64,000 nucleotides of DNA, from positions 1 to 64,000 of IMG/VR virus record IMGVR_UViG_3300010398_000002. The stretch is one strand, 5' to 3'. The notes beneath the pieces were generated by a model, which saw nothing but the letters and a program-made list of their open reading frames with translations, ran no database searches and was not told where the DNA came from. This document shows positions 6,414 to 55,151 of the stretch, piece by piece. Source of the DNA: a virus. The position numbers and the translations under genes are program-made. Each line of letters starts with the position of its first letter. Position 1 is the stretch's first letter.

Positions 6414-6418
6414 CATTG

Positions 6419-6700: not shown

Positions 6701-6705
6701 AGGAG

Positions 6706-7494: not shown

Positions 7495-7505
7495 CCAACC
7501 CAGAA

Positions 7506-7528: not shown

Positions 7529-7529
7529 A

Positions 7530-7559
7530 TTGCCCTGGGCTTGCATTGTGTGGCATAGT
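7530..7559 (+). promoter_or_regulatory. promoter TTGCCC-N18-CATAGT (TGTGGCATAGTG)
   Basis: TTGCCC 7530-35, CATAGT 7554-59. Confidence 0.5.
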
Positions 7560-7565
7560 GTGTTA

Positions 7566-9618: not shown

Positions 9619-12600
9619 ACCACCGTCTTCCAGGTCGAGCCGGTCCATACCTTGACCGGCTTGGTGGCCCAGCTGGTACCAGTCCACACCTTGGCAGGCT
9701 TGAGCGCCCAGGTGCTACCCGTCCAGACCTTGGGATAACCGGTGATGCCACCAGCTGTCGCGGTGGCGATCGCACTGATGACAAGCGCTGCACTCGCGGT
9801 GAGCTTCGCCGCTGCACTGGCCGGGCCCGCGAACAACACGAGCGAGGCAGTTGCAGCGACCTGCGCAGCAGCGACGACCGCAGCCGAGACGACCAGCACG
9901 GCGTTAGCGACAGCAATTGCCTTTGGCGCAGCGCTTGCCGAGATCACCAACACGCTCGTGGCGGTCATGGTCGCCTTAGGAATGGCCGTCGCCGAGATGA
10001 TAAGTACGGCGGTGCCACTGACCCCTGGAAGTTGCACAGAACCGGTTGCCGAGATCACGAGCACGGCAGCGGCTGTTCCCGCCGCAGCAGCTGCAGCACT
10101 CGCCGCAATGCTCAGCACGGCGGTGCCAGAAACCGGTACCGGCTGAACCGCACCGGTAGCGGCAATCACCAGTACAGCGGTCGCGCCCGCCGCTGCCTTG
10201 ACGGTGACGCTGGCACTGACCACCAGCACCGCAGCACCGGTCAGACCGCCGCCCACCAGAGCGGTGGCGGTAGCAGATAGCGCCATGGTGGCTATCGCAG
10301 TCACCTGAGCACTAGGCGCTGCCGTGGCGCCTATGACCAGCACTGCAGTAGCCGTAACCGGTGCGCTCACGGCCATCGTGGCGGTGATGGTGAGCGCCGC
10401 CGCCCCGGAGAATGACGGGACAGCGCTGGCAGCAAAGGTGAGTTGTGCGGTCGCGCTCGGTGCAGCTACCGCTACCGTGCTCGCCGCGATGACAAGTACC
10501 GCTGTTGCCGTGGGAACAGCAGCCGCAGTAACTCCGGCGGAAAGCACCAACACAGCGGTGGTGCTCGGCGCCGCCGCCCGAGCTGCCGCACTAGCCAGCA
10601 GTGACAACGCGGCTGTCGCCGATACGGGCACGACAGTGGCGACCGGACCGGCGCTGAAAACGAGCACAGCTGTCCCTGTCACACCGGTCACCGCCGAGGC
10701 CGTCCCGGTAGCGAGCAGCGTGAGTGAGGCCGTTGCGCTAGGCGCAGCAATTGCTGGTGCGCTGGCAGCAATGACCAGCACAGCTGTGGCGCTGACCGGT
10801 GCCGCAAACGTGCCAGTGGCGCTGATGACCAGCACCGCTGTTGCCGTCCCGGCAATGACGGCGGCGCCAGCGGTGGCACTGAAAGCCAGCACGGCTGTAG
10901 CCGTTGGCTTCGCGACAGCCACCGCAGTACCGGCGACAACACTCAGCGCTGCGGTAGCAGTAGGCGCGGCAGCAATCGTCCCTGTCGCCGAAATAGACAG
11001 GCTGGCTGTACCTGTGGCGAGAGCGGTCGCAGCGGCACTGCCGGTCGCCAAGAGCGACATGCTGGCAGTAGCCGTGACGGGAGCTGCTGGTGTAGCGCTG
11101 GCAGCCAGGCTCATGCTGGCCGTAGCCGTGGCCGGTGCTGCTGCCGAAGCCGGACCGGCGGCGATCGACAATGAGGCGGTGGCGGTTGGTCCGGCTGACA
11201 GCGCGCGAATCTCGGCGGCGAAGCGATAAGTGCTGGCGTTGCTGACCGTGTTGGTGAGGGCGATGGTCTGCGCGGTCGAGGCAATGGTGTTGGCAACGCC
11301 AGCCATCGAGAGTGCGGTCGCGCCTGAGTATGTCGTGTCATTGTCCGAGATAGCCGTGGCGGCGTTCGGGGTCGGGTTCGAGATAGCCTCGAAGGTGTCT
11401 TCCAACGCGGCGACGATCCAGCTACCCGAATAGGTCGGCGTGAGAGTGACGGTGGGCACTGTGCCCGAGTTGGAGTTGGCCGTGGCGCCCAGCAGCGAGG
11501 TGTAGTTGTCGCCGCTGATCTCGACGATGTCGGCGAGGATATGAAGGACGCCCGAGCCTCCCGTGACCGCGATCACCGACGGACCTGGGTTGCTCGTGCA
11601 GTGCACCATCCAGATGGATATGTCCGGCGAGAATCCATCCGCCTGCCATCTCGCCAGCGGCGACGCTCCCCACGAACCGGACCCACCAGAAGACCAAGCC
11701 ACGCTCGTGACAGCTCCGCCTGTGCCGGTGCCGTCCGTGAGCGTCACACACAAAAGCAGGTACGTGGAGCCCGAGACGGGTGAGAAGCTCGCCAACGAGC
11801 CAGAGGTGGCCGTGACCTTCAGCGACGGCGTCGGCGACGGGTTCTTCACGATCACCGCGTTCGACGGAGCCGTTGCGGCCGGACCGAGCCAGTTTCCCTC
11901 GGATAGCGCCAGATCGTCGAGCCAGATCGTCGGCTGGCTTCCGGACGTGGAGTATTCCCCGAAGGTTGCCGTGGTCGCGCTGAACTGGGCCGTCGCGTTC
12001 ATCGTGATGACGTCGTCTGGCAGCAGGAACGAGTCCGCGTTCTTATACAGCCGAACTGTGCCGACAGTGTTCGGCCCGGAACTCACCATCGACAGCTCGA
12101 TCCGGACCCACTGGCCCGTGGGAACCGAGACCGCGCCGAGCGGGCCGTTGGTACCGCTCGACTGGAGAAACAGCGGGCCAGTGTTGTTGATCCAGACGTC
12201 CATGGTCGAAGCGGAGCCGGTGAGGGTGCACAGCCTCCACACGGCGGGGCTCGTCGGGAGGCTGGTGATGTAGAGATAGAAGCGCGCGTACAGCGTCGTC
12301 TTGGTCGGCACGTTCCAGATGACCGTGGAGTTGGCGTTGCCGACGCCTCCAGTCGCGGCCATCGCCTTGGTGCCGTGCATCGCCTGCGTGGTGTTGTACG
12401 TCGGGGTGAAGGAACTGCCGACGCCGTCGAAGGAATCGCCGCTGCCGGTGTCCGTGGTCGTGATATTGGAGCCGCTGGCGCCGCCCTCGAAGTTGTAGCT
12501 GCGAGAGAACAGGGTCGGGGTGAGCGGACCGACCGTGTTCGAGGTGGACGAGCCCTGCGAGTTGTTGCCGACGACGTAGAACCAGTAAGGCTGCCCAGTG

Positions 12601-13409
12601 GTCAGGCTGGTCGCGGTGTAACCGGTCTGACCGGTCTGACCGGTGGCGATCTGGCTAAAGCTGGACCCGTCGGTGGACTGCCAGATGGCGTAGGTCGGAA
12701 CCGGGTTCGCGGCGGCGTCCGCCGTCCAGCTCAGCGCGACGGAGGTGGGAGAGGCGACCAACCCGCTGATGGTGCGTGCGCTCGGTGCGACCAGCTGCAG
12801 CGGGATGTCGGCCGGTGCGTTGAGGTACGTTGCGATGGGGGCAGCGCCCTCGGTGGTGCCGTCGTAGTAGATCGTGTTGTTGTAGGCGGTGCCCATGGAC
12901 TGGGTGGTGTTCTCCCGCCACCACTCGACTACGAGAACGTCGCCGTTCTGAATGGTGACGTTGGCGCCGGTCACGGTGATGTCACAGATGCTGAACGCCG
13001 TGAAGGCTTCTACTGCGCTGCTCGCCGTCGTGACGTCGCAGATTCGGGTGCCGACCATCGCGCCCGTGCCCGGCCGCCAGAAGTAGATGCACATGCCGGT
13101 GAAGAAGTTGGACGCCGCGTTGGCTTCCGAATACCCGCCGTTGAGGTGCCAGCTCCCGGCGCCGTACGTCCCGGCCGCCAGTGGCGGTGACACCCAGGTG
13201 CGGAACCACGTCGGCTGCGCCGAGGTGGTTGCGTTGGTGTTGATCGCCACGGTGACGGGCCCCGTAGAGGTCCCGATCGTGCCGTTCATCACCCGAGGCG
13301 TGCTCGCCCCGGGTACGGTCTGCGCCGAGGTGAGGCTGGACTGTTTGGTGGTGGGAAGAGTGCCCGCGACACTGGAGTTCGCGTCGTGCAGGTAGAACTT
13401 CTGAGTCAC
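9615..13409 (-). CDS. giant tail fibre / minor tail protein (1264 aa)
   Basis: Contains an FN3-like segment and a lectin/LamG-like segment, then an Ala/Thr-rich ~19-aa repeat region and a C-terminal triple KVWTGSxW..KP motif typical of actinophage fibres. Confidence 0.75.
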   Translation of the reverse strand: MTQKFYLHDANSSVAGTLPTTKQSSLTSAQTVPGASTPRVMNGTIGTSTGPVTVAINTNATTSAQPTWFRTWVSPPLAAGTYGAGSWHLNGGYSEANAASNFFTGMCIYFWRPGTGAMVGTRICDVTTASSAVEAFTAFSICDITVTGANVTIQNGDVLVVEWWRENTTQSMGTAYNNTIYYDGTTEGAAPIATYLNAPADIPLQLVAPSARTISGLVASPTSVALSWTADAAANPVPTYAIWQSTDGSSFSQIATGQTGQTGYTATSLTTGQPYWFYVVGNNSQGSSTSNTVGPLTPTLFSRSYNFEGGASGSNITTTDTGSGDSFDGVGSSFTPTYNTTQAMHGTKAMAATGGVGNANSTVIWNVPTKTTLYARFYLYITSLPTSPAVWRLCTLTGSASTMDVWINNTGPLFLQSSGTNGPLGAVSVPTGQWVRIELSMVSSGPNTVGTVRLYKNADSFLLPDDVITMNATAQFSATTATFGEYSTSGSQPTIWLDDLALSEGNWLGPAATAPSNAVIVKNPSPTPSLKVTATSGSLASFSPVSGSTYLLLCVTLTDGTGTGGAVTSVAWSSGGSGSWGASPLARWQADGFSPDISIWMVHCTSNPGPSVIAVTGGSGVLHILADIVEISGDNYTSLLGATANSNSGTVPTVTLTPTYSGSWIVAALEDTFEAISNPTPNAATAISDNDTTYSGATALSMAGVANTIASTAQTIALTNTVSNASTYRFAAEIRALSAGPTATASLSIAAGPASAAAPATATASMSLAASATPAAPVTATASMSLLATGSAAATALATGTASLSISATGTIAAAPTATAALSVVAGTAVAVAKPTATAVLAFSATAGAAVIAGTATAVLVISATGTFAAPVSATAVLVIAASAPAIAAPSATASLTLLATGTASAVTGVTGTAVLVFSAGPVATVVPVSATAALSLLASAAARAAAPSTTAVLVLSAGVTAAAVPTATAVLVIAASTVAVAAPSATAQLTFAASAVPSFSGAAALTITATMAVSAPVTATAVLVIGATAAPSAQVTAIATMALSATATALVGGGLTGAAVLVVSASVTVKAAAGATAVLVIAATGAVQPVPVSGTAVLSIAASAAAAAAGTAAAVLVISATGSVQLPGVSGTAVLIISATAIPKATMTATSVLVISASAAPKAIAVANAVLVVSAAVVAAAQVAATASLVLFAGPASAAAKLTASAALVISAIATATAGGITGYPKVWTGSTWALKPAKVWTGTSWATKPVKVWTGSTWKTVV
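9740..11220 (-). repeat. in-frame tandem repeats (~57-60 nt) encoding ...ATAVLVISATG...-type units
   Basis: More than 20 recognisable peptide repeats in the C-terminal half of the 1264-aa ORF. Both antisense frames give Ala-rich shadow ORFs. Confidence 0.7.
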
Positions 13410-13705
13410 GGCTCAAGCTCCGTGATCACCAGCGGACAGCAACCCTCGAAGCCGGGCGCCACCGGGGAGTCCAGCGCGTAGCCCAGCCGTGGACCGAGCA
13501 GAACCCGCAGCTCATCCAGGTGCTCGTGGTCACGCACTACGGTGGGCGCGCCGTCCACGTCGATGACCGCGCCGATAATGCAGTTGCCGATGCCGACGCA
13601 AGTGCCGTCCACCCGCCAGCGGGCGCCGTCATCCCGGCGATAGACGACCCAGCCGTCGTCTTGATCCTCGATGACGACGTGCGGGTCCTGGGTCGGCGTC
13701 GCCAT
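13406..13705 (-). CDS. hypothetical protein (99 aa)
   Basis: ATGA coupling to the downstream fibre gene. Contains a C-x-G-x-G-N-C stretch. Confidence 0.6.
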   Translation of the reverse strand: MATPTQDPHVVIEDQDDGWVVYRRDDGARWRVDGTCVGIGNCIIGAVIDVDGAPTVVRDHEHLDELRVLLGPRLGYALDSPVAPGFEGCCPLVITELEP

Positions 13706-13711
13706 CTGGGC

Positions 13712-14077
13712 TCATGTGATCGAGACGCTGATCGCACCCGCCGCGATAGTGATGGTGGCTGCGGTCACGCCGGAAGCCAGCGCACCACCCAGCGCGTAGT
13801 TGCCAGCGCTGGCCACGTTGTAGGTGCCGAAGTAGGTGACCGCCACCGACCCTGCCGTGGAGAACGACAGCGAGCTGGAGTTCGTCTTGGCGCCACCGGC
13901 AGCGGCGTTCCAGGAGCACGCCTGGCGGGCATAGCCACCGGTCGCCGCGTTCTCGGTAGCGCCTGTGGTGCCGGGGTCACCCGTGTGCAGCGACACGTAG
14001 CCGATGACGTTGGTGGCGCCGGTTCCGTCCAGGCCGTTCAGCGCGGCGTTCTCAGCGGCAGCTGCGGCACGAGCCAT
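13712..14077 (-). CDS. small tail-associated protein, 'SLHTGDPG...GGYARQ' family (paralogue 1 of 3)
   Basis: Shares YxSLHT(G/A)DPG...E..GG(S/Y)YARQ with 58477..58848, and more loosely with 62092..62544. Confidence 0.6.
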   Translation of the reverse strand: MARAAAAAENAALNGLDGTGATNVIGYVSLHTGDPGTTGATENAATGGYARQACSWNAAAGGAKTNSSSLSFSTAGSVAVTYFGTYNVASAGNYALGGALASGVTAATITIAAGAISVSIT

Positions 14078-14080
14078 GAC

Positions 14081-14302
14081 TCAGGCCCCCGATCGCTTGA
14101 CGTGCCTGAACTTCTCTTCGCTGTAGAGGAACAGCGGATGCCCCTCTTTCTCGTAGCGCTGGCCGATCAGCTCGGCGACCTCCAGCGCGCGCTCCGGGGA
14201 TTCCACCTCGATCTGGTCGGCGGACACGTCGTACTCGGTACCGTCGGCTGCAGTGACCGTGCCCTGGATCGGGCCGGTGACCACGACATGGGGTCCAGTC
14301 AT
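14081..14302 (-). CDS. hypothetical protein (73 aa)
   Basis: ATG 14302 after GAGAGGA SD. Trimmed from track ORF 14081..14446, whose N-terminus is Pro/Arg-rich junk. Confidence 0.55.
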   Translation of the reverse strand: MTGPHVVVTGPIQGTVTAADGTEYDVSADQIEVESPERALEVAELIGQRYEKEGHPLFLYSEEKFRHVKRSGA

Positions 14303-14312
14303 CTGATTCCTC

Positions 14313-14597
14313 TCAGGTTGTGTCGATCCAGACGTCGCCCACCGAGGGTGAGCTGGGCGCTGTGGTGCCAACGGTGAGCGCGACGCTCCAGGTAGTGGCG
14401 TAATCGGCAGAGGAAGCCTTGGCCAGCAACTGGTTGGGCCGACCACCGGCTGGCACTCCCACTCCCGCCGGGCCCGTTGATTGCGCAGTGGCGGTCGGCC
14501 GGTTCTTCAATGCCGCCGAAGCGCTGGGACGCACGAGGTGCGGTGCAGCGGTCTTCGTCCCTGGTGTGCTCACCGCAACCTTGTACGGACTGGTCAT
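14313..14597 (-). CDS. minor tail protein fragment-like (94 aa)
   Basis: Motif NQLLAKASSADYATTW...GDVWIDT, as at the N-termini of actinophage fibre proteins. Same motif twice in 17197..18633. Confidence 0.55.
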   Translation of the reverse strand: MTSPYKVAVSTPGTKTAAPHLVRPSASAALKNRPTATAQSTGPAGVGVPAGGRPNQLLAKASSADYATTWSVALTVGTTAPSSPSVGDVWIDTT

Positions 14598-15067
14598 GGC
14601 CGGGTCACCTCGGCCGTCACGGTCACTTTCCCGGCGACCAGCGTGGTGATGTTCCCGCCAGCGTCGGTGATCTGGCAGTCCCAGACCGCAGCGGCGGGCA
14701 ACCCGGCCGAACTCGTGTGCGACAGGTGCAGATGGATCACGTTCTTGTTGACTGCATCGACGGTGGCGATGAAGGTAGCTATCGCGGTCGTATCCGCCGC
14801 CGTCACCCGGATTTCCGATTTCGGCGTGGCTCCGGTCAGGTCGGCGTTTGTGCTGTCTGGGTTGGTAACCGTCAGGTCGAGGTAGAAGTCATCGCCCGCG
14901 TAGAGCGCCAGGTCCTGCGAGAGCGGCAGTGCGCTGATCGGACCGGCGGCTTGCAGCTCTGGAGCTTGGGCGGTCTCACCCACCACGGCAAGGCTCCGAG
15001 ACAACAACCGCTGCGGACTGGTCACGGAAATATCATCGCCCGCCAGACCCGTCACCCCTGCAGGCAC
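14594..15067 (-). CDS. minor tail protein (Ig-like, '...LYAGDDF.L.L.V...WD.Q..D' family)
   Basis: 157 aa. Alternative GTG at 15055 would give a GTGA overlap with the upstream stop. Similar architecture to 20919..21650. Confidence 0.6.
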
Positions 15068-26505: not shown

Positions 26506-29130
26506 TCACGACACCACCTGCTGTGGTACGGACAGCAACAGGTCCAGCGCCTGGGCCTCGTAGAGCGCGCCGAGCACACCGCACAGGTCCTTCGGGTCAC
26601 GGGTCTTGAGCCACTCCTGACCACCGGTCACCGGCCTGCTGCCACACTTCTCGATCAGGTCGTCAAGGTCGGTGTACGGACCATGCTCCACTATGTGTTG
26701 AGCAGCCTTGATGCCAACGCCCTTAACTGAGATGAGTCCACGGCGTACGAACCTGCCGCTGGGATCGAGGGCATAGCTGACATCACTGGAGTTAACGGCA
26801 GCGCTCTTGACGCGCACGTCATGGCTGCGCGCAGCGTGTAGATACTCTGGTTCTTTATCCTTTGTTCCCGCAAACGACGCCAACAGTGCAGCAAAATATG
26901 GCACAGGATGATGGGTCTTTAGATAAGCTGTCTGGTAGGCAGTCAGTCCGTAGCGGGTGGCGTGGGCTCGGTTGAATCCGTAGTCGGCGAAGCCCTCAAT
27001 GGCTCGCCATAGCATCGCTCCTTCGGCGTCGGGTATCCCGGCCCCGGCGCACAGTCGGTATACGTCGGCGCCGTAGGAAGCGATGACTTCCGCCGCAGCA
27101 GCCACGTTGTTGTTGCTGGCCTTGACCGCCTTGAGCAGCTCCGTCAGGTCCTCCGGGCTCATCCCGAGCGCGCGCAGAATCTCGATGACCTGCTCCTGGA
27201 ACACCACGAGCCCGTGCGTGTCCTTCAATGCTTTGCCCAGTATCGGGTGCATATCTGGAACTTTGTGTAGCTTGAAGCGACGCGCCAGATACTCCTGTGT
27301 GGCTCCAGAACCCATCACCGCAGGTCTGTATAGGGCCATCACCGCAATGATGTCGGCGACGTTGCGCACCCGCAGTTCCTGGGCGCCGCGCCGATTGGTG
27401 AAGCCGTCGAACTGGAACACGCCCACTGTGTCGCCACGCTGCACCGTGGACAGGGTCGCCGAGTCGTTCAGCGGTATCCAGTCCAGGCCCTCCACCGGAT
27501 CGCGGCCCAGGTTCTCCAGCGTCTGCCGGATCGTGGACAGCGCCCGCAGCCCGAGCAGGTCCAGCTTGACCAGGCCGAGGCTCTCGATGTCGTCCATCGT
27601 GTACTGGCTTGCAGTGGTCTTGCTGCTGGCCACGTACATGGTCGGCACGAGCTGGTCGAACTCGGCGTCGCTCGTCGTCACGACCAGCCCGGCCGCATGT
27701 ACTCCATACCCAGAAGTGGCACCCGACCTCGACAACATCGAGAGCATGATCTTGTCGTCCTCGGGCACCGCGTCCCAGGCGAGCGTCTCGCCCTCGGCCA
27801 GCGACTTGCGTGCCTTGGCCATGTACTTGACCACCAGGCTGCCCTTGCCGTCCTCGCCAGGCGTCATGCCCAGCTCCAGGTAGGTGCCGATCTGGTGCAC
27901 CGAGAAGCGCTGCCTGATCCAGGCGATGACATCAGCGCGCCGGGTGTACTCCACGTCCAGGTCGATGTCCGGTGGCTTGGTGCGGTCGGTGGTGATGAAC
28001 CGCTCGTAGCGCAGCTTCCACCAGACCGGGTCCACGCTGGTGATGCCCAGCCGGTAGCAGACCAGCGAGCCGGACGCCGAGCCGCGCGCCTGGAAGATGA
28101 TTCCTTCCCTGCGCATGTAATCGGTGACCTCGGCCACCAGCAGCAGATACCCGGCCATGTCGGTGGCCTCGATGACCGCCAGCTCCTCTGCTAACAATCC
28201 GCTCTTGTCCGATCCGACACGAGCGCGCAGCACTGCCATCGGATCGGGCGTGATCTGTGGGATGCGATAGCGGTAGCGATCGAGCTGCGGGATGCTCAGG
28301 TGCCATCTGGCCGCAAGGTCGGCCATTCCTGCTAGCCCAGCCGCCCAGTGCGCAGGAGTGTGCCGAGCCTTCACCTCGGCGGTTGCGGCCAGGTGGTAGC
28401 CATGCCCTCGAAAGACACCGTCGTCGTCGCCTGAGCCGTACGAAACAAGGCGTTTAAGCGCGTCGTGTGCTGCCCGTTGGACAGGTCTTGCATAGTGCAC
28501 GTCGCCAGTAACCAGACAGGGGAGCCCAAGGCGATCCGCCAGTTCCGCCAGCGCCCCACATAGCTCGGCATCGGTGATGCCGTCGTCCCACGTGATGTCA
28601 TGGTTCATCAGCTCCACATAGCAGGCGTCGAACCAGAGCGCGTACATGGCCAGCGTGTTCATCGCGGCCTCGGGCCCGTAGTTCAACAGGTCCTGGATCG
28701 GTAGCCCGGACCAGCATCCGGACAGGCACGCCAGCCCGGTCAGCCACCCCTCCTCGGCACACTCGGCCAGGTCGGCGAGATCGAGCAGCGGCTTGTGGAA
28801 GAACTGCGCGTGTGCCCGGCTGGAGAGCCGGACCAGGTTGCGATACCCCTCGGTGCTGAACGCCAGCACTCCGAGGTGGTGCCGCTTTGCTTTCTTGTCG
28901 CGCCGGTCTCGGACGAGATAGAACTCCTCACCGGGAAATGGAGCGATTCCAGATTTCATGCACTCGCGGTAGAGCTGCACGCTGCCGGACATATTGCCGT
29001 GGTCGGTGAGGGCCAGGCAGGGCTGGTCGTTCGCCCCTGCCTGGCCCACCAACGTCGGCACAGAGCTGATCGCATCCCCGGACGAGTAGACCGAGTGGAC
29101 GTGAAGGTGGCTCCATGCCGAATCGGTCAT
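26506..29130 (-). CDS. dnaE: DNA polymerase III alpha subunit (DnaE-like, PHP domain)
   Basis: 874 aa. N-terminal HLHVHSVYSSGD (PHP). Overall DnaE-like sequence by eye. Confidence 0.85.
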   Translation of the reverse strand: MTDSAWSHLHVHSVYSSGDAISSVPTLVGQAGANDQPCLALTDHGNMSGSVQLYRECMKSGIAPFPGEEFYLVRDRRDKKAKRHHLGVLAFSTEGYRNLVRLSSRAHAQFFHKPLLDLADLAECAEEGWLTGLACLSGCWSGLPIQDLLNYGPEAAMNTLAMYALWFDACYVELMNHDITWDDGITDAELCGALAELADRLGLPCLVTGDVHYARPVQRAAHDALKRLVSYGSGDDDGVFRGHGYHLAATAEVKARHTPAHWAAGLAGMADLAARWHLSIPQLDRYRYRIPQITPDPMAVLRARVGSDKSGLLAEELAVIEATDMAGYLLLVAEVTDYMRREGIIFQARGSASGSLVCYRLGITSVDPVWWKLRYERFITTDRTKPPDIDLDVEYTRRADVIAWIRQRFSVHQIGTYLELGMTPGEDGKGSLVVKYMAKARKSLAEGETLAWDAVPEDDKIMLSMLSRSGATSGYGVHAAGLVVTTSDAEFDQLVPTMYVASSKTTASQYTMDDIESLGLVKLDLLGLRALSTIRQTLENLGRDPVEGLDWIPLNDSATLSTVQRGDTVGVFQFDGFTNRRGAQELRVRNVADIIAVMALYRPAVMGSGATQEYLARRFKLHKVPDMHPILGKALKDTHGLVVFQEQVIEILRALGMSPEDLTELLKAVKASNNNVAAAAEVIASYGADVYRLCAGAGIPDAEGAMLWRAIEGFADYGFNRAHATRYGLTAYQTAYLKTHHPVPYFAALLASFAGTKDKEPEYLHAARSHDVRVKSAAVNSSDVSYALDPSGRFVRRGLISVKGVGIKAAQHIVEHGPYTDLDDLIEKCGSRPVTGGQEWLKTRDPKDLCGVLGALYEAQALDLLLSVPQQVVS

Positions 29131-35743: not shown

Positions 35744-35760
35744 AATTGCTGGAACGTAGG

Positions 35761-35789
35761 GCCCCGGGCAACCGGGGCTCTTTCTTTTT
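35761..35789 (+). terminator. intrinsic terminator
   Basis: GCCCCGG-GCAA-CCGGGGC then TCTTTCTTTTT. Confidence 0.75.
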
Positions 35790-35821
35790 GCCCACTTTGC
35801 CCTAGCCTTGTTATCCTCTGG

Positions 35822-35852
35822 TTAGGCATAGTGGCACTGTGTGTGCTATACT
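35822..35852 (+). promoter_or_regulatory. promoter with CATAGTG box and TGTGCTATACT
   Basis: TATACT 35847-52. Confidence 0.5.
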
Positions 35853-35904
35853 GGACGCAGTTCGGGGTACACCGCCCCGGGCACGATAGTGAGGAGAACT
35901 CAAT

Positions 35905-36207
35905 ATGACTGACACCACGCCAGAGGCCGGTGCTCACACCCAAACTCCCGCAACCGAGCAGGTTGCTGAGGAAGAGGTCGAGTACTACGAGCCATGGTGG
36001 CGGCGCACCGTTGGATCGGTACTGCCGCAGGACGCGGAGCAGCGTCGGACCATGCTGGTCCGGGCAGGCACCACCGTCCTCGCGACCGCAGTCTCCGGCC
36101 CGTTCGGGGTTGCCGTCCTCGGCTACAACGTGGCTGACTACATCCGCAACGCCAAGCTGCGGGAAGAGGGTAAGCCGCCGGTCGGACTGATCGAGGGCGT
36201 CATCTGA
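35905..36207 (+). CDS. hypothetical protein (100 aa), acidic N-terminus with a hydrophobic segment
   Basis: SD GTGAGGAGAAC. Track ORF. Confidence 0.7.
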   Translation: MTDTTPEAGAHTQTPATEQVAEEEVEYYEPWWRRTVGSVLPQDAEQRRTMLVRAGTTVLATAVSGPFGVAVLGYNVADYIRNAKLREEGKPPVGLIEGVI

Positions 36208-36226
36208 CGAGAGCCCCACAGAGCTG

Positions 36227-36263
36227 CCCCACCGCTTCACGTGAGCGGTGGGGCTCTCTTTTG
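36227..36263 (+). terminator. intrinsic terminator
   Basis: CCCCACCGCT / AGCGGTGGGG 10-bp stem then CTCTCTTTTG. Confidence 0.75.
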
Positions 36264-36289
36264 CCATTAATCACATTATGTGGTATAGT
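36261..36289 (+). promoter_or_regulatory. promoter TTGCCA-N17-TATAGT (TGTGGTATAGT)
   Basis: TTGCCA 36261-66, TATAGT 36284-89. Confidence 0.6.
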
Positions 36290-36339
36290 GGATACCAGTG
36301 AGACCGGAAATACCGGTCCACCGACAAGAGGAGAACGTC

Positions 36340-36651
36340 ATGACCGAATTGTCCAGAACACTGAACAAGCTGTCCACCGCACTGGTGGTGTTCGCGTGGT
36401 TCATCGGAGTCTTCGGGGTCATCGGCGGTATCGGCATCGCTGTCCAGACGGGCACCGGCCTTTCCACCGACTACCTCGGCAACATCCAGGACACCACGAC
36501 CCACCCGTACGTCGGCCTCGGCATCGGACTGATCGCTGTGTCGATCATCTACGCCGTGGTGGTGGCCTGGTTCGGCTACGTGGGCAAGGTTCTGGCCAAC
36601 CACGAAGCTCGCTCGCAAGCTACCTTCGAGCGGACCTTCCAGGTTTCCTGA
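36340..36651 (+). CDS. membrane protein (103 aa, 2 TM)
   Basis: ATG 36340 after AGAGGAGAAC. TM segments ALVVFAWFIGVFGVIGGIGIAV and VGLGIGLIAVSIIYAVVVAWFGY. Confidence 0.7.
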   Translation: MTELSRTLNKLSTALVVFAWFIGVFGVIGGIGIAVQTGTGLSTDYLGNIQDTTTHPYVGLGIGLIAVSIIYAVVVAWFGYVGKVLANHEARSQATFERTFQVS

Positions 36652-36660
36652 CAACGACAC

Positions 36661-36689
36661 GGCCCCGCTTCGGCGGGGCCTTCGTCATT
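36661..36689 (+). terminator. intrinsic terminator (weak T-run)
   Basis: GGCCCCGC-TTCG-GCGGGGCC then TTCGTCATT. Confidence 0.55.
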
Positions 36690-36709
36690 AAGCGATCTTG
36701 TGGTATAGT
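36681..36709 (+). promoter_or_regulatory. promoter TTCGTC-N17-TATAGT (TGTGGTATAGT)
   Basis: TATAGT 36704-09. Confidence 0.55.
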
Positions 36710-36764
36710 GTAGGTCATTGGCCCGTACTCACGGGGTAGGGGCCCCATGCCCAGAGGAGAACTG

Positions 36765-36917
36765 ATGGAAATGACTCGTGAACAGCTATTAGGACTGCTG
36801 CTCATCGCACTGGTCCTGGGCACAGGACTGGTGATCATCTGGCAATGGCCACTGATCACCGACTGGATTCACACCATCTTCGACACCAATCAGGCCGTGC
36901 CGGTACGGCACACCTGA
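36765..36917 (+). CDS. single-pass membrane peptide (50 aa)
   Basis: Below track cutoff. ATG 36765 after AGAGGAGAAC. LLGLLLIALVLGTGLVIIW TM. TGA 36915-17. Confidence 0.6.
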   Translation: MEMTREQLLGLLLIALVLGTGLVIIWQWPLITDWIHTIFDTNQAVPVRHT

Positions 36918-36922
36918 GACCC

Positions 36923-36953
36923 AGCCCTCGCCGCCCGGCGGGGGCTTTCTTCA
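36923..36953 (+). terminator. intrinsic terminator
   Basis: CCCTCGCCG / CGGCGGGGG stem then CTTTCTTCAT. Confidence 0.6.
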
Positions 36954-36957
36954 TGCC

Positions 36958-37066
36958 CGAACGACGGACCTGGTCATGCCCAACCAAGCCGTCACGACGA
37001 TCCGGGCCAAGCCAACGCCTTGCCGTCACGACAGATCAGATCGGTCCCGGCCAAGCCGTCACGACT
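36958..37066 (+). repeat. mini-array: 3 exact CCGTCACGAC cores (36989, 37023, 37056; 33-34 nt apart) plus one degenerate copy (GAACGACGGACC at ~36958)
   Basis: Same motif, orientation and period as the 50-52 kb and 54-55 kb arrays. Sits 45-150 nt upstream of promoter 37110-37138. Confidence 0.8.
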
Positions 37067-37109
37067 CACCAGACCCGACCAGACCCGGCCGGGTTTTCTT
37101 AATGCCCAC

Positions 37110-47025: not shown

Positions 47026-48501
47026 TTGCCTACCACAGCAGTTGACAAGACCGAACAGGAAGTCATCGAGGAGCAGATTCTGGCCGAGCTGGGCAAGCTC
47101 GCCGGAGTGCGCTCCGGGCAGGACCGCATCCAGAAGGAGGGGACCAAGTACGTTCTGCCCCAGAGCACCTCGCTGCGCGACGACATCACGTTCCTGGTGG
47201 ACTACGCCGACGCCCTGGAGACCGAGACGGCGTTCACCCGGGTGTTCAAGTACCGCCCGTGGGACGGTGCCGCATGCTTCCAGGCGGCGCTGATGCGCGT
47301 CTGGGGCACCGCAGGCGTCGGCCAGGCCACCTACAGCTTCTTCGGAAAGAACCCGCCGGAGATGCGCACCATCGAGGTCGGGCCCCACCAGACCATGCAG
47401 ATTCCCTGGGGCCAGATTCAGTTCGCTCCGCTGTCGGCCACCATCACGTTGAGCGGTGTCGAGAGGCGGGACTTCGGGACGCTGTTCCAGATGATCGTGG
47501 TGTGCCCGAAGAAATACGCCAACCAGGTGGAGGGCCTGTTCACGATCGTCGAGCAGGAGTTGAAGGAGCACTCGATCTACAAGGGCCAGGCGTTCAACGG
47601 CGCCGAGGAACCAGGCTTCCTGGACCCCTACTCGGTGGACCGCAACAAGGTGATCTACACCGAGGAGATCGGTGACCAGCTCGACGCCAACATCTGGTCG
47701 ATGCTGCGGCACACCAAGGTGATCAAGCAGCTGGGGCTGCCGCTCAAGCGCTCGGTGCTGCTGGGTGGCCCGTACGGCACCGGCAAGAGCCTGACCGCCA
47801 TGGTCACCGCGCAGATCGCCATCGAGAACGGCTGGACCTTCGTGCAGTGCCGACCGGACGACGACCTGGCCCGGACGTTGCAGACAGCCAGGCTGTACGA
47901 ACCGGCGGTGGTGTTCTACGAGGACATCGACAACCTGTCCCGTTCCGGTGATCCAGAGACGATCAGCAAGCTGCTCGACATGTTCGACGGCATCTCCGCC
48001 AAGGGCACCCAGCTGGCCATGGTGCTCACCACCAACAAGGTGGACAGGATTCACAAGGGGATGCTGCGGCCGGGCCGTCTCGACGCGCTGATCATGCTGG
48101 ACGCGCTGGACGAGGAGAGCTTCATCCGGCTGGTCAAGGCAGCGGCGCCAGACGGCATGCTCGACCCGGAGATGGACTTCCAGGCGGTTGCCGCCTCGAT
48201 GAAGGGCTTCCTGCCCGCGTTCGTCAAGGAGGCCATCGACCGGGCCGTGCGTTACGCGGTTGCCCGGGTGGAGGGCAAGCCAGCGGTATTCACCACCCAC
48301 GACTTCGTGCGCGCCGCCGAGGGCCTGCGCCCGCAGCTGGTCACCATGAACGAGGCCAAGGACACGGTGGCGCCGGACGAGGCCAGCGTCGTCCTAGGGA
48401 AGATCGTCAAGGCAGCGGTGACCACTGGCGAAGTCGCGATCCTCGACCCTGACGACGGAAGCAAGCAGTACGTGCTCGGAACCACCAACTCCAGCACGTA
48501 A
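47026..48501 (+). CDS. AAA+ ATPase (classic FtsH/Cdc48-type module) with ~230-aa unknown N-terminal domain
   Basis: TTG start after TAAGGAGAAC. Walker A GGPYGTGKS, Walker B VVFYEDID, second region of homology TTNKVDRIHKGMLRPGRLD. Confidence 0.85.
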   Translation: MPTTAVDKTEQEVIEEQILAELGKLAGVRSGQDRIQKEGTKYVLPQSTSLRDDITFLVDYADALETETAFTRVFKYRPWDGAACFQAALMRVWGTAGVGQATYSFFGKNPPEMRTIEVGPHQTMQIPWGQIQFAPLSATITLSGVERRDFGTLFQMIVVCPKKYANQVEGLFTIVEQELKEHSIYKGQAFNGAEEPGFLDPYSVDRNKVIYTEEIGDQLDANIWSMLRHTKVIKQLGLPLKRSVLLGGPYGTGKSLTAMVTAQIAIENGWTFVQCRPDDDLARTLQTARLYEPAVVFYEDIDNLSRSGDPETISKLLDMFDGISAKGTQLAMVLTTNKVDRIHKGMLRPGRLDALIMLDALDEESFIRLVKAAAPDGMLDPEMDFQAVAASMKGFLPAFVKEAIDRAVRYAVARVEGKPAVFTTHDFVRAAEGLRPQLVTMNEAKDTVAPDEASVVLGKIVKAAVTTGEVAILDPDDGSKQYVLGTTNSST

Positions 48502-49997: not shown

Positions 49998-50147
49998 ATG
50001 GTCAAGGCGATTGTTCGAGCCGTAGGTCGCATCATCCAGACAGTGCGCAGCTGGATCAAAGGGCTCTTCACGCCAAAGGCAGTGCGGTATCAACGGAAGC
50101 GCAAGGTAACGGTCTCACCGAACTCGTCCCGTCCCCAGGCTGCATGA
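49998..50147 (+). CDS. small basic peptide (49 aa) immediately upstream of repeat array 1
   Basis: Below track cutoff. ATG 49998 after GAGAAGGAGAAAC. MVKAIVRAVGRIIQTVRSWIKGLF... (amphipathic, Arg/Lys-rich). Confidence 0.4.
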   Translation: MVKAIVRAVGRIIQTVRSWIKGLFTPKAVRYQRKRKVTVSPNSSRPQAA

Positions 50148-52005
50148 CTCACCAAGCCAGCCCGGCCCTGCCCTGTCCGTCACGACGGACCGGACCAGAC
50201 CTCATCTTCCCGTCACGACAACCCTTGCCATCCCAAGCCGGTCCGTCACGACACACCACGACGCGGCCCGTCGAACCTGGCCACACCGTTCCGACAAGCC
50301 ACTACGTGTCATGCCGCGCCATCACGTCAGGACAGACCAGGTCTCACCACGCCCGTGACGACAGACCAGGACTCTCCTGTCCACGCGACAGACTTAGCCA
50401 CACCGTCCCATCCCGTCAAGACGGGCCACTCCACGCCCCATCGTTCGACGAACCTCTTCACTCCAGGCCGTTCCGACAGGCCGGTCCTCGTCTCACCCAC
50501 CCGCGCCTGGCCGCACCGTCATGACTCTCCGTTCCTGGCCCTCCCGATCCGTAACGACACTCCATACCCTCCCATGCCGTCACGACGTCCCTACCCGCCT
50601 CGCCCCTGGCCGTTCCGTCAACGACGGACCCCTCCGGCCCGAGCCAGCCCACAATGACGTGCCGCACCGAATCCGACCGATCCGATCCGGACGTACCCCG
50701 CCTTATCACCCCTATCCGTCAGGACAATCCTGGCCATCCCATTCCGCTCCCGACGATCCCAACCGAGCCGCATCAGACCGAGCCGTCACGACTGTCCGCT
50801 CCCCTCCGGCCCACACCTCACCGTGCGACGATCCCGTCCCTACTCCATACAGTCCGCACCGGTCCGTCATGACACACCTCACTGAGCCAGTCCCTCCCAC
50901 GCCGTCACGACACACCAGGTCTCGCTAAGGCACGCCGAGCCTTACCTCGCGACATTCCACTACACGCCCACCCGTCACGACAGGCCAGTACACGTCTCGC
51001 CGCCACGTCACGACCAGCCCGTCCAGCACACGCCCTGCCTTGCCGTCACGACGGTTCTAGCCGTGCCATACCGAGCCGACCCAGCACGACACTCCGCTCC
51101 GGCGCTGTCCGGCCCACAACCCGCCACACCTGGCCGAATGACTATCCACACCAGTCCCAGTCCGACAAGCCACGACCACGTCACGGCGCGCCCTTGCCAT
51201 GCCGTCAGGACTCACCAGCCCATGACCCTCCAACCCTCGCCCAGCCCATCCGTCCCTCGCGACGCATCACTCCCATCCGGCCCGCGCCATATGACAGACC
51301 GCGTCGCAACACTCCTTGCCACTCCGACAGACCGCGTCCCTCCAGGCCGTCCCGTACCGTCCGACAGACCAAGCCAAGACGTGCCGTCCCGTCACGACAG
51401 ACCGATCCGGCCCGGACCGTCCGACAGGCCACATCTCGCCCCAGTCACCCCTCCCCGTACGACAGACCTCATCAGTTCAGACCTCACCGTCATTGACTCT
51501 CCGCACCTGGTCGCGTCACCCCAGACCGTCGAGACTGTCCATCCCAGCCCAAACCGTCGCGCGACAAACCTCTCCAAACCGAACCGTCACGACAGACCGA
51601 GCCGACCCGTTCCGAATGACAGTCCACTGCACATCTGTCCTCCCCGTTCGACGATCCTGGCCAGTCTCGGCCCGCGCCATGCCGTCACGACTATCCGCTC
51701 CACAACCTGCCAGTCCGAGCCGTCACGACATGCCGTACCAGCCCGAACCGTCACGACGAACCGATCTCAACCCCGCCGCACCGCGCCCGTCCATCCGACT
51801 ATCCGTCCCTGACCCTGCCGAGCCATCACGACATGCCGAGCCCAGACATGCCCTTCCTGGCCGTCCCGCATTGTCACACCACGCCCGCACCTGGCCGTCA
51901 CGACTATCCGTACCGACCCTTATCCGACCCGACCTGGCCGTCACGACCATCCGCTCCATACCGTCCCGACATTGACACACCACGTCACTACCCATCCGCA
52001 CCACC
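50148..52005 (+). repeat. repeat array 1: degenerate ~33-nt direct repeats, core CCGTCACGAC(N3)CCG, C-rich strand
   Basis: 16 exact CGTCACGAC copies (my line-by-line count), all plus strand, plus many 1-2-mismatch copies. First three cores at 50177/50210/50243. Core occurs in all three frames. Confidence 0.9.
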
Positions 52006-52106
52006 CCCGCCCGGACGTTTCGGGCCCACCCATGCCGCACCAACTTCCCTACCCTGCCGGGTAGGGACCACGGGCCACCAAAACCAACGGCCCATGACCA
52101 GAAAGG

Positions 52107-52820
52107 GTGATCACTTTGTGGATCATCTACGAACTCAAACTGCACGTTGACCGCCTGGTGGGAGGCATCCCCAAGCACCCGACGATCATCAAGCGCTGGC
52201 AGGAGGCACACATGCCTCCAAACCCGGAGCGTGTCGCCGAGCGGACCGGCCAGCCGGTGCCCACGGTCGAGCAAGCGACCGAGAAGACCATGGACCTGCT
52301 CGGCAGCCAGATGATGGACCCCGAAGAGGTCGTGCAGGGCATCTGGACCGGCTTCGTCACCATGCCCAACGGCACCACGCTGGCGCTGGAGAACCGCAAC
52401 ATCAAGGCGATGCTCAAGGAATCCGCCAACATCGTGCGGGTGCTGCCCGACATGCCCAAGAACACCAAGGGCGGCGCGATCCCGTTGAAGAACAAGCTGG
52501 CCGAGCGGGTGTTCGTCAACCCGCCACTCATCGCGATCCTCGACGAGGACGGCAAGCAGGTCACCGAACCGGAGTCGTCACCCGAGCGGCCCATCCACGT
52601 GATGACGATGCAGGGACCGCGCACCGCGCTCAAGCGGGTGGATCAGGTCAGGGACGTCACCCTGGTGTGCCAGCTCAAGGTGCTCGACGACGGGGTGATC
52701 ACCGAGGACATGCTGCGGATCATCCTCGACCACGCCAAGGAGAACGGCCTGGGCACCGATCGCTCTACCGGCGCCGGGACCTTCGAGTACGAGTTGAAGC
52801 GGATGGACCCGCCGCAATGA
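52107..52820 (+). CDS. hypothetical 237-aa protein with Cas6/RAMP-like glycine-rich loop (candidate RNA-binding/processing protein)
   Basis: GTG 52107 or TTG 52116 (GAAAGGG SD). N-terminal beta-strand then VGGIP. NRNIKAMLKES. C-terminal GLGTDRSTGAG (aa 214-224) fits GhGxxxxxGhG. No search done. Confidence 0.7.
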   Translation: MITLWIIYELKLHVDRLVGGIPKHPTIIKRWQEAHMPPNPERVAERTGQPVPTVEQATEKTMDLLGSQMMDPEEVVQGIWTGFVTMPNGTTLALENRNIKAMLKESANIVRVLPDMPKNTKGGAIPLKNKLAERVFVNPPLIAILDEDGKQVTEPESSPERPIHVMTMQGPRTALKRVDQVRDVTLVCQLKVLDDGVITEDMLRIILDHAKENGLGTDRSTGAGTFEYELKRMDPPQ

Positions 52821-53212
52821 ATGGGGAGAAAACCACGCTGGAATACCTGTCGGACAAGTACCGGCTGCAGATAGTGGCGATGCTGTCTGCCGGGCCCACC
52901 ACGGTGGCAGACATCGTGGACCGGATCGGCGTCATCACCCACAGCACCACGCAAAAGCTCGTGGACATGATGGTCGAGGAGGGCCGTGCGCGTCTGATCG
53001 AGTACGGCAAGGCAACCGGCTCGGACTACTACGAGCTGGTGACCATGCGGACCCGGGACGAGATCGTCGGTATGGCCACGGTCGCAGAGGGCGAGTCTCA
53101 GAAGACCGAGAACGCTGACTATTGGCACGGAGTCGAGGAAGCGCTGCACTGGGTGCTGGGCGAGCAGCCAAGCGCCTTCCAGATACGAATGATGCTCAGC
53201 GCAGGACCATGA
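52817..53212 (+). CDS. ArsR/MarR-like winged-helix DNA-binding protein (131 aa)
   Basis: ATGA coupling. LSDKYRLQIVAMLSAGPTTVADIVDRIGVITHSTTQKLVDMMVEEGRARLIEYGKATGSDYYEL matches the wHTH layout. Confidence 0.7.
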   Translation: MNGEKTTLEYLSDKYRLQIVAMLSAGPTTVADIVDRIGVITHSTTQKLVDMMVEEGRARLIEYGKATGSDYYELVTMRTRDEIVGMATVAEGESQKTENADYWHGVEEALHWVLGEQPSAFQIRMMLSAGP

Positions 53213-53403
53213 CCTGGATGCAACTACAGGAGTGCTGGGGGTTCATAGACGAACGCACCGGCAAACGTGTCTCGGTGACGACGACGCCTACCAGATGGCA
53301 GGCCGAGCGTCAGCTGCGGGAATGGATCGAGCGCGACAGGCAGGGCAAGCGTCCGGACGTGCACGACGTCATTCCGCATATCAAGATCGTGCAGCTGTGG
53401 TGA
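53209..53403 (+). CDS. hypothetical protein (64 aa)
   Basis: ATGA coupling at 53209-12. Confidence 0.6.
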   Translation: MTWMQLQECWGFIDERTGKRVSVTTTPTRWQAERQLREWIERDRQGKRPDVHDVIPHIKIVQLW

Positions 53404-53503
53404 CGCCCTGGCCGGGATGGTCCGGCTGGTACCACAGCGTGGCGACGGCGTCGTGGGCTCTGACCTGCGGCGCCCGAACCGCCTATCTACGAAGGAGAAG
53501 CGC

Positions 53504-53728
53504 ATGAGTCAACTGTGGCCACCTGACGAAGACGAACAGCGCGTGCGCACCTATGACGAGCACGGTGAACCGCACGATGACGTGCTACGCACCGAGTCCG
53601 GCAAGGTGATCACCGAACAAGATATAGACAGGCTCGCTGAGGAAGCGCTCATCACGTCGCCTGTCAGTCCCTTGCGACGGGCCGCCGACCGATACCGGCG
53701 GACGAGCCGACAGTGGCCCATCGCCTAG
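53504..53728 (+). CDS. hypothetical protein (74 aa)
   Basis: ATG 53504 after GAAGGAGAAG. ...ITEQDIDRLAEEA... reminiscent of small antitoxin-like proteins (weak). Confidence 0.55.
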   Translation: MSQLWPPDEDEQRVRTYDEHGEPHDDVLRTESGKVITEQDIDRLAEEALITSPVSPLRRAADRYRRTSRQWPIA

Positions 53729-53827
53729 TACCACCACCCCACCACTGGAACGGAGAGACGTGGCTGTGCCTAGCGTGCGGCCACATCTCGCCTGATCCAT
53801 GCGACTGTCCATGCCATGGAGACAGCG

Positions 53828-54091
53828 ATGTCTTACGCCAAGCCCGACCGATTCTTCGACGACGGTTTGATCTACCTGTCCACCCCAGCAGCAACGGTCG
53901 GGCTCGTGGTCAGGCACGGCCGGATCGTTGAGGCCCCGCCCTACGCCAAACGTTGGGCGTTGGGCAAGCACGCCGTGACACTGTGGCGCATGTACTCACA
54001 ACATCCGAGCAACCAACTGGTCTGGCTTCCTGACTCTCCAGCCCCTGCCATACCAAGCCGACTCCATATCACGCGGACACTCCGTACCTAA
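53828..54091 (+). CDS. hypothetical protein (87 aa); 3' end runs into array 2
   Basis: ATG 53828 (or 53816). Overlaps a Zn-ribbon-like ORF 53713..53931 in another frame. Confidence 0.5.
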   Translation: MSYAKPDRFFDDGLIYLSTPAATVGLVVRHGRIVEAPPYAKRWALGKHAVTLWRMYSQHPSNQLVWLPDSPAPAIPSRLHITRTLRT

Positions 54092-55125
54092 GCGCGCCAG
54101 GCCGAACCGACTCTTCACTCCACCGCTCGCCGCCCCGACACGACTCTCCACGTCAGTTCTCAGCGCGCCGTCACGACACTCCTCGCTACCCCTAACCTCG
54201 TCCCGCCGCACCGTCACGACACACCTCGTCACAGGCAGCCCTGATCAGGCCAAACCGTCAACGACCGGCCACGTCGTACCACTCCTGCCCCGACGATCCG
54301 CACCCCAAACCAGTCAGACCTCGCCGCCATGACGATCCGCTCCGACCCCGAACAATCCGAGCCGTCAACGACATACCTAACCGATCCGTGCCGTCCCGTC
54401 CGACAACCCAGTCCACCCCGTAACGACATTCCGGTCCGGCCCGAGCCGCCCCTTGCCGACAGACCGCATCACGACTGACCTCGACACCGTCACGACAGTC
54501 CGCACCAGCCCGAGTCAGTGCCGCCCAATCCTTGCCGTCACGACCATCCTGGCCGAGCCCATCCGCTCCGCAACGACTGACCTCGCCACCTCCACTCCGC
54601 CTCTCGCCGCCCCGTAACGACGGTCCTCGCCACTCTTCGGCCCGCCCTTGCCACTCCGTCACGACGGTCCGCGCCACGTCTCTTGCGAACCCAACCGAAC
54701 CGTCACGACTGTCCAATCCACGCCGCCCCGTGCGACGTACCTGGCCTAGCCCTACCGTTTCGACGTTCCTGGCCCATCCAGCCCGATCCATCACGACGTG
54801 CCGATTCACGCCCGGGCCAACCGGCCCAAGCCGTCACGACGACCCCTGCCTACTCGTCTCCCGCCATGCCGTCCCGTCACGACCTGCCACATCACTTCGA
54901 GCCAGACCGTCATGACATACCACTTCTTACCGGCCCAGACCGGTCCGTCACGACCTACCTCGCCTGGTCACCCCTATCCGAGCCGTTGCGACTCTCTACT
55001 CCAGTCCCGTCCTGACCTAACCATCACGACGTACCTGGCCTAGCCCACCCCGCCCGGTCCGTCACGACAATCCGTGCCTCACCAGACCTACACGTAACGA
55101 CATACCTAATCGGCCCTTCCCGAGC
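54040..55125 (+). repeat. repeat array 2: same CCGTCACGAC(N3)CC unit and orientation
   Basis: 10 exact CGTCACGAC copies (my count) plus degenerate copies (CCGTCAACGAC, CCGTAACGAC, CCATCACGAC, CCGTCATGAC...). Confidence 0.9.
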
Positions 55126-55151
55126 CGGTCCGTCCCCCGAAAGGAGGCCCC

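Follow-up and report, generated by a model that had tools for sequence, protein, structure and literature searches.

The window analysed here is a stretch of 64,000 nucleotides (nt), positions 1 to 64,000 of the IMG/VR virus record IMGVR_UViG_3300010398_000002, and belongs to the genome of a tailed phage with portal, DNA polymerase and DnaB genes. It contains a gene for a minimal RAMP protein, called vipr below, with long arrays of tandem pentanucleotides on both sides. Here we propose, with a probability of roughly 0.85, that this locus is a Viral Interference Programmable Repeat (VIPR) system, in which the open reading frame (ORF) encodes the Vipr protein and the two arrays, together with a mini-array elsewhere in the window, are the guide (vrRNA) arrays. 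As such it is a member of a kind of system that has been known since 2026, and it represents a large uncharacterised clade.

VIPR systems were described in two bioRxiv preprints (10.64898/2026.04.26.720920 and 10.64898/2026.04.26.720927), and the background given here follows these two texts. Vipr is a phage-encoded minimal RAMP of about 20 kDa with an RRM, a G-loop, a thumb and an alpha-bundle, and it is accompanied by an accessory gene, vap, which often encodes a winged-helix or helix-turn-helix protein. The vrRNAs consist of 9-16 YNNGG pentamers followed by a 3' tail. One Vipr protomer binds each repeat, hiding GGY and presenting NN, and the filament uses a gapped code, with a skip of one nucleotide, to read double-stranded DNA and repress rival phages. 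The VIPR ribonucleoprotein of the systems described binds DNA and does not cut RNA; short array RNAs that co-purify with Vipr are reported for SUSP1, P. fulva and types III and V only. Seven VIPR types are mentioned, with dense 'staggered' arrays and repeats of the forms NNNGG, YNNNG and NNNNG among them. VIPR reads its constant bases specifically, whereas Cas7 binds the backbone of the CRISPR RNA (crRNA) without sequence preference. VIPR systems have been proposed to be the ancestors of the CRISPR RAMP effectors and to offer a very compact programmable DNA-binding platform (10.64898/2026.04.26.720920; 10.64898/2026.04.26.720927).

The vipr gene and its predicted fold

A first-pass annotation of the window, made by eye from the letters, had pointed to an ORF of 237 amino acids (aa) at 52107-52820 on the plus strand, and this ORF is present as described. 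Gene calls were made on the parent contig (ENA ERZ27264337 k141_2309669, 80,173 bp), and the start chosen there is TTG 52116, which gives a product of 234 aa and is also favoured by the way homologues begin (consensus MW..Y.L). Used as a single sequence against Pfam, PHROGs and PDB sequences, the protein retrieved nothing useful, and megablast against phages gave no match. Among 5.8 billion proteins searched there were 123 relatives, none of which is named, and a profile search of 1.84 billion cluster representatives (E <= 1e-3) returned 2,372 relatives, counted as clusters at 50% identity.

In an alignment of 66 family members G20, P22, K104, G170, G214, R219 and G224 are invariant, and G19, E95, R97, K100, E105, N108, R172, K176, G216, S220 and F226 are nearly invariant, with G216, S220 and F226 conserved in at least 90%. 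The best-conserved part of the family is the loop GLGTDRSTGAG, for which the consensus in the window clade is N-G-L-G-(T/A)-D-R-S-Q-G-x-G-x-F. Given this family-wide conservation, the loop is not a chance match. Its coordinates and its distance of 13 aa from the C-terminus agree with those noted in the first-pass annotation, and the three elements picked out there by eye (a strand followed by GG.P, the helix NRNIKAMLKES and the Gly-rich loop) are exactly those that the family conserves.

The AlphaFold2 model, computed on the family alignment (pLDDT 93.8, pTM 0.85), has a single RRM with a helical insertion, the alpha-bundle, at aa 25-68. A thumb beta-hairpin spans aa 160-178 with G170-P-R172 at its tip, and the G-loop sits between helix 2 and the last strand. 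The segment WIIYELKLHV, which had been taken for an N-terminal strand, is strand 1 of the model, and NRNIKAMLKES forms RRM helix 1. Structural comparison of such a model had been suggested earlier, and with Foldseek it brought up no unrelated fold among the matches listed. The 50 PDB matches listed, among 126 with E <= 0.001, are all Cas7-type RAMPs of CRISPR effector complexes; type VII Cas7 stands at the top (E 2.6e-8, probability 1.0), Csm3, Cmr4 and Cas7-11 are also present, E values extend to 5e-5, and Cas6 is absent from these 50. The best match among viral predicted structures is BFVD entry A0A8S5R426, a 'RAMP superfamily protein' of a gut phage (Foldseek E 1.5e-13).

Sequence profiles point to the same superfamily. 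The only Pfam families matched by individual members are RAMP families, namely Cas_Cas6_C (10/66), CRISPR_Cas6 (4/66) and RAMPs (3/66), with a best E of 1e-5. The Cas6 matches of the relatives (E 1e-4 to 2e-3) cover the G-loop only, and the window protein itself matches no Pfam family. Against PDB sequences the family profile found solely the G-loop region of Csm4, and the Csm4 matches, in PDB sequences and NCBIfam, span ~30-35 aa around the loop. The RAMP fold proposed in the first-pass annotation is thus borne out by the Foldseek matches and by the RAMP-only Pfam matches. The likeness to Cas6 proposed along with it did not hold: the nearest CRISPR relatives are Cas7 proteins (Csm3, Cmr4, type VII Cas7), and sequence matches to Cas6 and Csm4 stop at the G-loop. 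By its model, the protein is classed as a RAMP of the Cas7 kind, not of the Cas6 kind. It shares with Cas7 (Csm3, Cmr4, type VII Cas7 and the Cas7-11 domains) the RRM core, the thumb hairpin and the Gly-rich loop, at Foldseek TM-scores of 0.39-0.61 (E 3e-8 to 5e-5, probability 1.0) and a sequence identity of 7-14%. By analogy with Cas7, one protomer would occupy each RNA repeat in a helical filament. The window locus differs from Cas7 systems in lacking both a CRISPR array and genes for the partners Cas5, Cas10 and Cas11, and in a repeat register of 5 nt where that of Cas7 crRNA is 6 nt.

The connection to VIPR comes from Escherichia phage SUSP1, whose locus in KT454805.2 has Vipr at 28474-29061 (-) and vap at 28031-28471 (-), with YNNGG repeats in both flanking gaps on the strand of vipr. 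The SUSP1 Vipr sequence used was the deposited 'SUSP1 Vipr protein' (36pp). Alignment of the window family to a family of 40 SUSP1-Vipr sequences with hhalign gave a probability of 86.6% (E 4.4e-6). The aligned region of 138 columns begins at helix 1 and runs to the C-terminus; in it R219 pairs with R179, G224 with G183 and F226 with F185 (window and SUSP1, respectively).

Array grammar and its pairing with vipr

A unit of the arrays is composed of GTCACGAC, or a degenerate form of it, followed by 4-6 pentamers NNNCC in which NNN is unit-specific. Parsing yields ~85-90 units, close to the '90-odd' of the first-pass annotation. The core CCGTCACGAC (<=1 mismatch) occurs 56 times, where 11.3 occurrences are expected and 0/100 shuffles reach 56, and every array copy of it is on the plus strand. 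Core spacings of 28, 33, 38, 43 and 48 nt (8+5n) account for 26 of the 51 intervals, against 20% expected by chance. The autocorrelation of CC at lag 5 is 2.58 in one array and 2.35 in the other, with ~1.8 at lag 10, ~1.5 at lag 15 and only 0.77-0.90 at lag 6; coding controls give 0.89-0.94. For CCG the values at lag 5 are 4.2 and 4.0, compared with 0.69-2.29 in coding controls, on sparse counts. Short-range autocorrelation was used in place of a long-window Fourier analysis of period 5, which was unsuccessful because the register shifts at each core.

The 51 unit bodies that can be cleanly delimited all differ, the top pairwise identity being 0.70. Among sandwiched pentamers CC is kept in 68%, only the last C in 20% and only the first C in 8.5%. 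A purine follows CC at a frequency of 0.61-0.65 in the window and 0.38-0.65 across arrays; a 'CCR' motif mirroring GGY was considered and dropped, the purine preference not being general across arrays. Neither a CRISPR-like tandem array nor an Rfam family was found in the window. Positions of the arrays, of vipr and of the other features are given in Table 1.

The relation between gene and arrays was followed in 39 loci that encode vipr relatives, all from IMG/VR or phage records and some of them near-duplicates. In 29/39, vipr has a CC-periodic array on its own strand at a distance of up to 150 nt, and in 3 more at up to 800 nt; a GG-periodic array within 750 nt of vipr was found in 0/39. In the 39 loci examined vipr is solitary. 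The same GAC(NNNCC)n units are present in a phage of 51% GC (L010, GAC AATCC AGACC TCACC) and in high-GC phages, and Microcystis phage Mae-JY09 has them at its genome end. Unit lengths in these phages are 18, 23, 28 and 33 nt (3+5n). The punctuation common to the whole family is GAC and the pentamers are constant, with a degenerate NNNNC form in the most distant relatives. The vipr genes of loci L012 and L019 have 89% identity and 23.5% of their 14-mers in common, the arrays 0%; k-mer sharing was used here instead of global array alignment, which is meaningless in low-complexity DNA. A fixed grammar with free, fast-turning content is the behaviour of guide arrays. Together with the homology to SUSP1 Vipr, the pairing in 29/39 loci lends sequence-level support to the earlier suggestion of a CRISPR-independent repeat-RNA system.

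Table 1. Features of the putative VIPR locus and of the mini-array in the window
Feature	Position	Strand	Remarks
Mini-array	36950..37090	+	three CCGTCACGAC cores spaced by 33-34 nt and NNNCC pentamers; distance to vipr 15 kb
Array 1, upstream of vipr	50140..52000	C-rich strand +	~55 units; GC skew -0.36
Two short hairpins, GCCCGgacgtttCGGGC and CCCTACCctgccgGGTAGGG	52009..52066		in the 115-nt gap between array 1 and vipr; read by eye
vipr gene, minimal RAMP	52116..52820	+	likely start TTG 52116, 234 aa; open frame from GTG 52107
G-rich loop GLGTDRSTGAG	aa 214-224, nt 52746-52778	+	family alignment; pairs with SUSP1 G-loop GVGDWRPRFGRF in hhalign
Candidate accessory gene vap, winged-helix/ArsR-like	52817..53212	+	131 aa; start overlaps vipr stop (ATGA)
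Three small ORFs	53218..54091	+	61, 74 and 87 aa, between vap and array 2; membership in the system uncertain
Array 2, downstream of vipr	54095..55130	C-rich strand +	~30 units, same grammar; GC skew -0.25

About 10 nt separate array 2 from the ribosome-binding site that precedes the gene start at 55152. Neither of the hairpins between array 1 and vipr is followed by a T-run on the plus strand. The mini-array is bracketed by a strong plus-strand terminator (36923-36946) and a hairpin followed by TTTTCTT (37082-37104). Possibly it is a guide unit that stands alone; its terminator-like end on the plus strand is a hint as to which strand is transcribed.

Several Pro/Ser/Thr/Arg-rich 'proteins' are called inside the arrays, at 51138-51812 and elsewhere in 50144-51975 and 54258-55043, one example being a 224-aa product on the parent contig. 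They are artefacts of stop-poor, C-rich DNA, because a 5-nt periodicity cannot encode a conserved protein. In practice, gene callers place false proline-rich 'proteins' inside VIPR-type arrays.

Comparison with known VIPR systems and the guide strand

The type II VIPR systems of SUSP1 and of a P. fulva prophage resemble the window locus in that a phage carries a small RAMP on its own, with RRM, alpha-bundle, thumb and G-loop; a small gene of DNA-binding type adjoins it, as the candidate vap does at the window. As at the window, they have long non-coding flanks of tandem pentanucleotides with two constant and three variable positions, and their arrays stand on both sides of the gene, with content that is hypervariable between relatives.

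Other observations weigh against assigning the locus to VIPR. The window family is a remote homologue of SUSP1 Vipr by profile comparison, and at profile level only; its profile against the single SUSP1 sequence gave a probability of 3.5%. The sense strand reads NNNCC in the window where the published repeat is YNNGG, and the SUSP1-type loci have GG on the sense strand in 80/80, with a median of 35 GG links versus 4 CC links. No third conserved base shows across the arrays of the window clade. The SUSP1 residues D177 and W178, which contact guanine, are not conserved in the window clade, and H17 falls outside the aligned region. The window units hold 4-6 pentamers, compared with the published 9-16, and have no structured 3' tail. 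Finally, the candidate vap product resembles ArsR/MarR-type winged helices (NCBIfam E 7e-6; Pfam E 7e-4 to 8e-3) with scores under every curated threshold, and no homologue of it was found beside vipr in the related loci, where the neighbours vary.

There are further differences of design. The G-loop carries (T/A)-D-R-S-Q in the window clade and G-x-G-D-(W/Y/F)-R-P in SUSP1-type proteins, and hhalign places the Asp of the window clade against SUSP1 W178, the G2-stacking residue. Window units are separated only by GAC or GTCACGAC, whereas type II units are RNAs of ~100 nt with their own promoter-like sequence and a structured 3' tail, and there are ~90 units at the window against 4 in type II. 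The window protein is ~40 aa longer than type II Vipr.

Two Vipr-like proteins of gut phages, MT839334 and MT835477, are 27-29% identical to the window protein. Their arrays (L041 3770-3950 and L042 2300-2790) are tightly packed against the gene, between co-oriented genes, and, unlike those of the window, are, on the sense strand, rich in G and A, with a periodicity of NNNNG and with GGAAATG as punctuation. The G-loop of both proteins, GIGQW(R/H)NSGKGRF, keeps a tryptophan that the window clade does not. The two form an intermediate clade, useful for mapping the difference between G and C. A separate case is locus L103 (IMG/VR 3300005076_000145), a SUSP1-type Vipr with 43% identity over aa 1-179, in which the C-terminus is GLGTDRALADS* instead of GLGDYRPRFGRF; although it resembles the GLGTDR of the window clade, this end is probably due to a frameshift.

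If the locus works as VIPR does, by analogy with SUSP1 and P. fulva its arrays would be transcribed and then cut into short RNAs. Each pentamer would be bound by one Vipr protomer through helix 1, the thumb and the G-loop, with the constant bases hidden and the variable ones displayed. Through gapped base pairing the filament would find its target, double-stranded DNA of rival phages or prophages, and silence it, and the winged-helix gene after vipr would serve as the accessory vap gene. The first-pass annotation had the repeat RNA bound or diced at each core; by the same analogy, the bound element is likely to be the pentamer tract between cores and not the 10-nt core.

Under the published rule 4-6 pentamers specify 8-12 bases, a number below that of every vrRNA characterised so far. 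This would mean that units work in groups, that each N of the three is read, or that low specificity is intended. A search for targets with 100 guides against 0.95 Mb (both strands counted), in 11 combinations of frame and skip, gave the same result for real and null guides, a search without power because each guide has only 8-12 specified bases. Six perfect matches for 'NNN skip 2' came from unmasked duplicate arrays.

As VIPR, the window locus would add a large metagenome-wide clade of 2,372 clusters to these systems. Its arrays are far larger (~90 units) and more compact (28-48 nt per unit, without tails or promoters) than those of characterised type II systems, and the published model leaves the processing and the specificity of such short guides unexplained.

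The placement and decay of the arrays offer hints as to which strand would serve as guide. We lean, at somewhat better than even odds, towards co-transcription of the arrays with vipr, which would yield a C-type guide RNA 5'-GAC(NNNCC)n with its cytosines sequestered by the protein. Such a guide would be the base-for-base complement of the published YNNGG code, and the change in the G-loop from D-(W/Y/F)-R to (T/A)-D-R-S would then be a specificity switch. The guides would have 4-6 repeats, about one turn of the filament, would be separated by GAC and would be deployed together, ~90 at a time. In favour of this, array orientation is strictly clade-specific, C being on the sense strand in 29/39 loci here and G in the 80/80 SUSP1-type and the 2 gut-phage loci, and it is the sense strand that was shown to be transcribed in SUSP1 (10.64898/2026.04.26.720920). 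Either an array follows the vipr stop at a distance of 0-16 nt (in L007 the stop is overlapped by the first core), or 10-25 nt separate the array end from the ribosome-binding site of the next gene; in about half of the loci an antisense promoter or terminator could not be fitted in. Degenerate pentamers retain the 3' C (238 vs 99), as SUSP1 retains the 3' G (6 vs 1); if read in antisense, the better-kept G would be the 5' one, opposite to SUSP1.

Antisense transcription of the arrays is also quite possible, at a little under even odds in our estimate, and would give a G-type guide 5'-(GGNNN)n-GUC, equivalent to the NNNGG variant already described, with a 3' tail that is very short. All VIPR types described in the preprints are G-based (10.64898/2026.04.26.720920; 10.64898/2026.04.26.720927). 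An A-run with a hairpin, a would-be antisense terminator, lies between vipr and array in L028 (2905-3005) and L030 (3590-3640), and sense-strand terminators occupy this place in L016 and L017. Scanned for terminators, the ends of 25 arrays showed mixed orientations, with the antisense type in L028, L030 and L036 and none in about half of the loci. A second hairpin (~65 nt) follows in L028. Around the window arrays no sigma-70 promoters were found and intrinsic terminators were no more frequent than in shuffles, and an Rfam scan of the window and 11 loci detected no hammerhead ribozymes. If the sense strand is indeed the RNA, the code between RAMP and repeat can be rewritten from G to C, a natural specificity switch that would help both to explain base reading by RAMPs and to design orthogonal VIPR tools.

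Competing explanations and genomic context

An unlikely alternative to VIPR is that the protein is a Cas6-like endoribonuclease, mainly an RNA-processing enzyme, for which the CCGTCACGAC cores of a long array transcript would be both recognition sites and points of cleavage. The protein has in common with Cas6 the GhGxxxxxGhG loop near the C-terminus, a similar overall size and the weak, loop-only Pfam matches described above, and, because the units abut too closely for each to have a promoter, processing by some nuclease is needed. The structural matches listed are nevertheless all Cas7-type, and the model contains one RRM where Cas6 has two, with the G-loop in the second. Most Cas6 substrates have hairpins; the core has no hairpin potential, so the arrays provide no hairpin repeat for recognition, and there is no evidence of nuclease residues in the protein. 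Across the family only GAC is universal and the constant feature is the pentamer. Processing by Vipr, if it took place, would come on top of filament formation.

We regard as very unlikely an anti-defence decoy, in which a phage-borne mimic of Cas7 and a sponge RNA would titrate or poison type I, III or IV CRISPR complexes of the host in the manner of RNA anti-CRISPRs. The protein is Cas7-like and encoded by a phage, and the 8-nt core GUCACGAC has what we take to be the length of a crRNA 5' handle, with a CGAC end presumably like that of some handles. The 5-nt periodicity, however, does not fit the 6-nt register of Cas7 filaments. A decoy tuned to its host would not show the same grammar across phages of very different GC and presumably different hosts, and unit bodies that all differ and turn over fast suit guides, not decoys.

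Slightly less probable again is a DNA-level role, with the arrays acting as sites for partition, packaging or replication or as operators of the winged-helix protein, and with the RAMP doing something else. The core, GTC-NN-GAC, is quasi-palindromic, a winged-helix gene adjoins, and the three-copy mini-array lies in an intergenic region elsewhere. Against this, an extreme strand asymmetry tied to the orientation of the RAMP gene in 29/39 loci is unexpected for double-stranded sites, the RAMP is conserved with the arrays and the winged-helix gene is not, and homologous systems were shown to use RNA in the VIPR preprints. A remnant or miniature CRISPR-Cas locus, with the Cas7 of a degraded type III, IV or VII system and decayed arrays, would account for type VII and type III Cas7 as top structural matches but is hardly credible, as the window has no CRISPR-like repeat, no Cas Pfam domains were found in the 20 kb around vipr, the 'spacers' are built of pentamers and only 20-30 nt long, and a family of >2,000 clusters has the same solitary context in the 39 loci examined.

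Two observations concern the window upstream of the proposed VIPR locus. A 491-aa AAA+ ATPase (47026-48501; Pfam AAA, E 3e-12, with faint STAND-NTPase matches) is encoded 1.6 kb upstream of array 1. The region 35758-36950 has, within 1.2 kb, three sigma-70-like promoters on the plus strand (two with a TG-extended TATAGT -10 element and one with TATACT) and three strong plus-strand terminators. With a fourth, on the minus strand, the promoter-like sites number four where 0.5 are expected, and the region resembles a group of early transcription units, all of them very short.

Among the related loci, L009 (IMG/VR 3300037483_001478, 1-2000) has an 18-nt perfect palindrome, CAATGGCCATGGCCATTG, in ~10 copies around vipr and inside the arrays, sometimes extended to long hairpins. 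Perhaps it serves this phage alone, as an element for processing or termination. In L005, from the phage carrying P0090, the helicase and the family A DNA polymerase that flank vipr (5155-7731 and 10277-14641) both contain inteins according to precomputed Pfam annotation. Locus L018 has a group I intron at 1851-2122 (Rfam, 88.9 bits), and L037 has a cluster of seven tRNA genes at 9973-11623.

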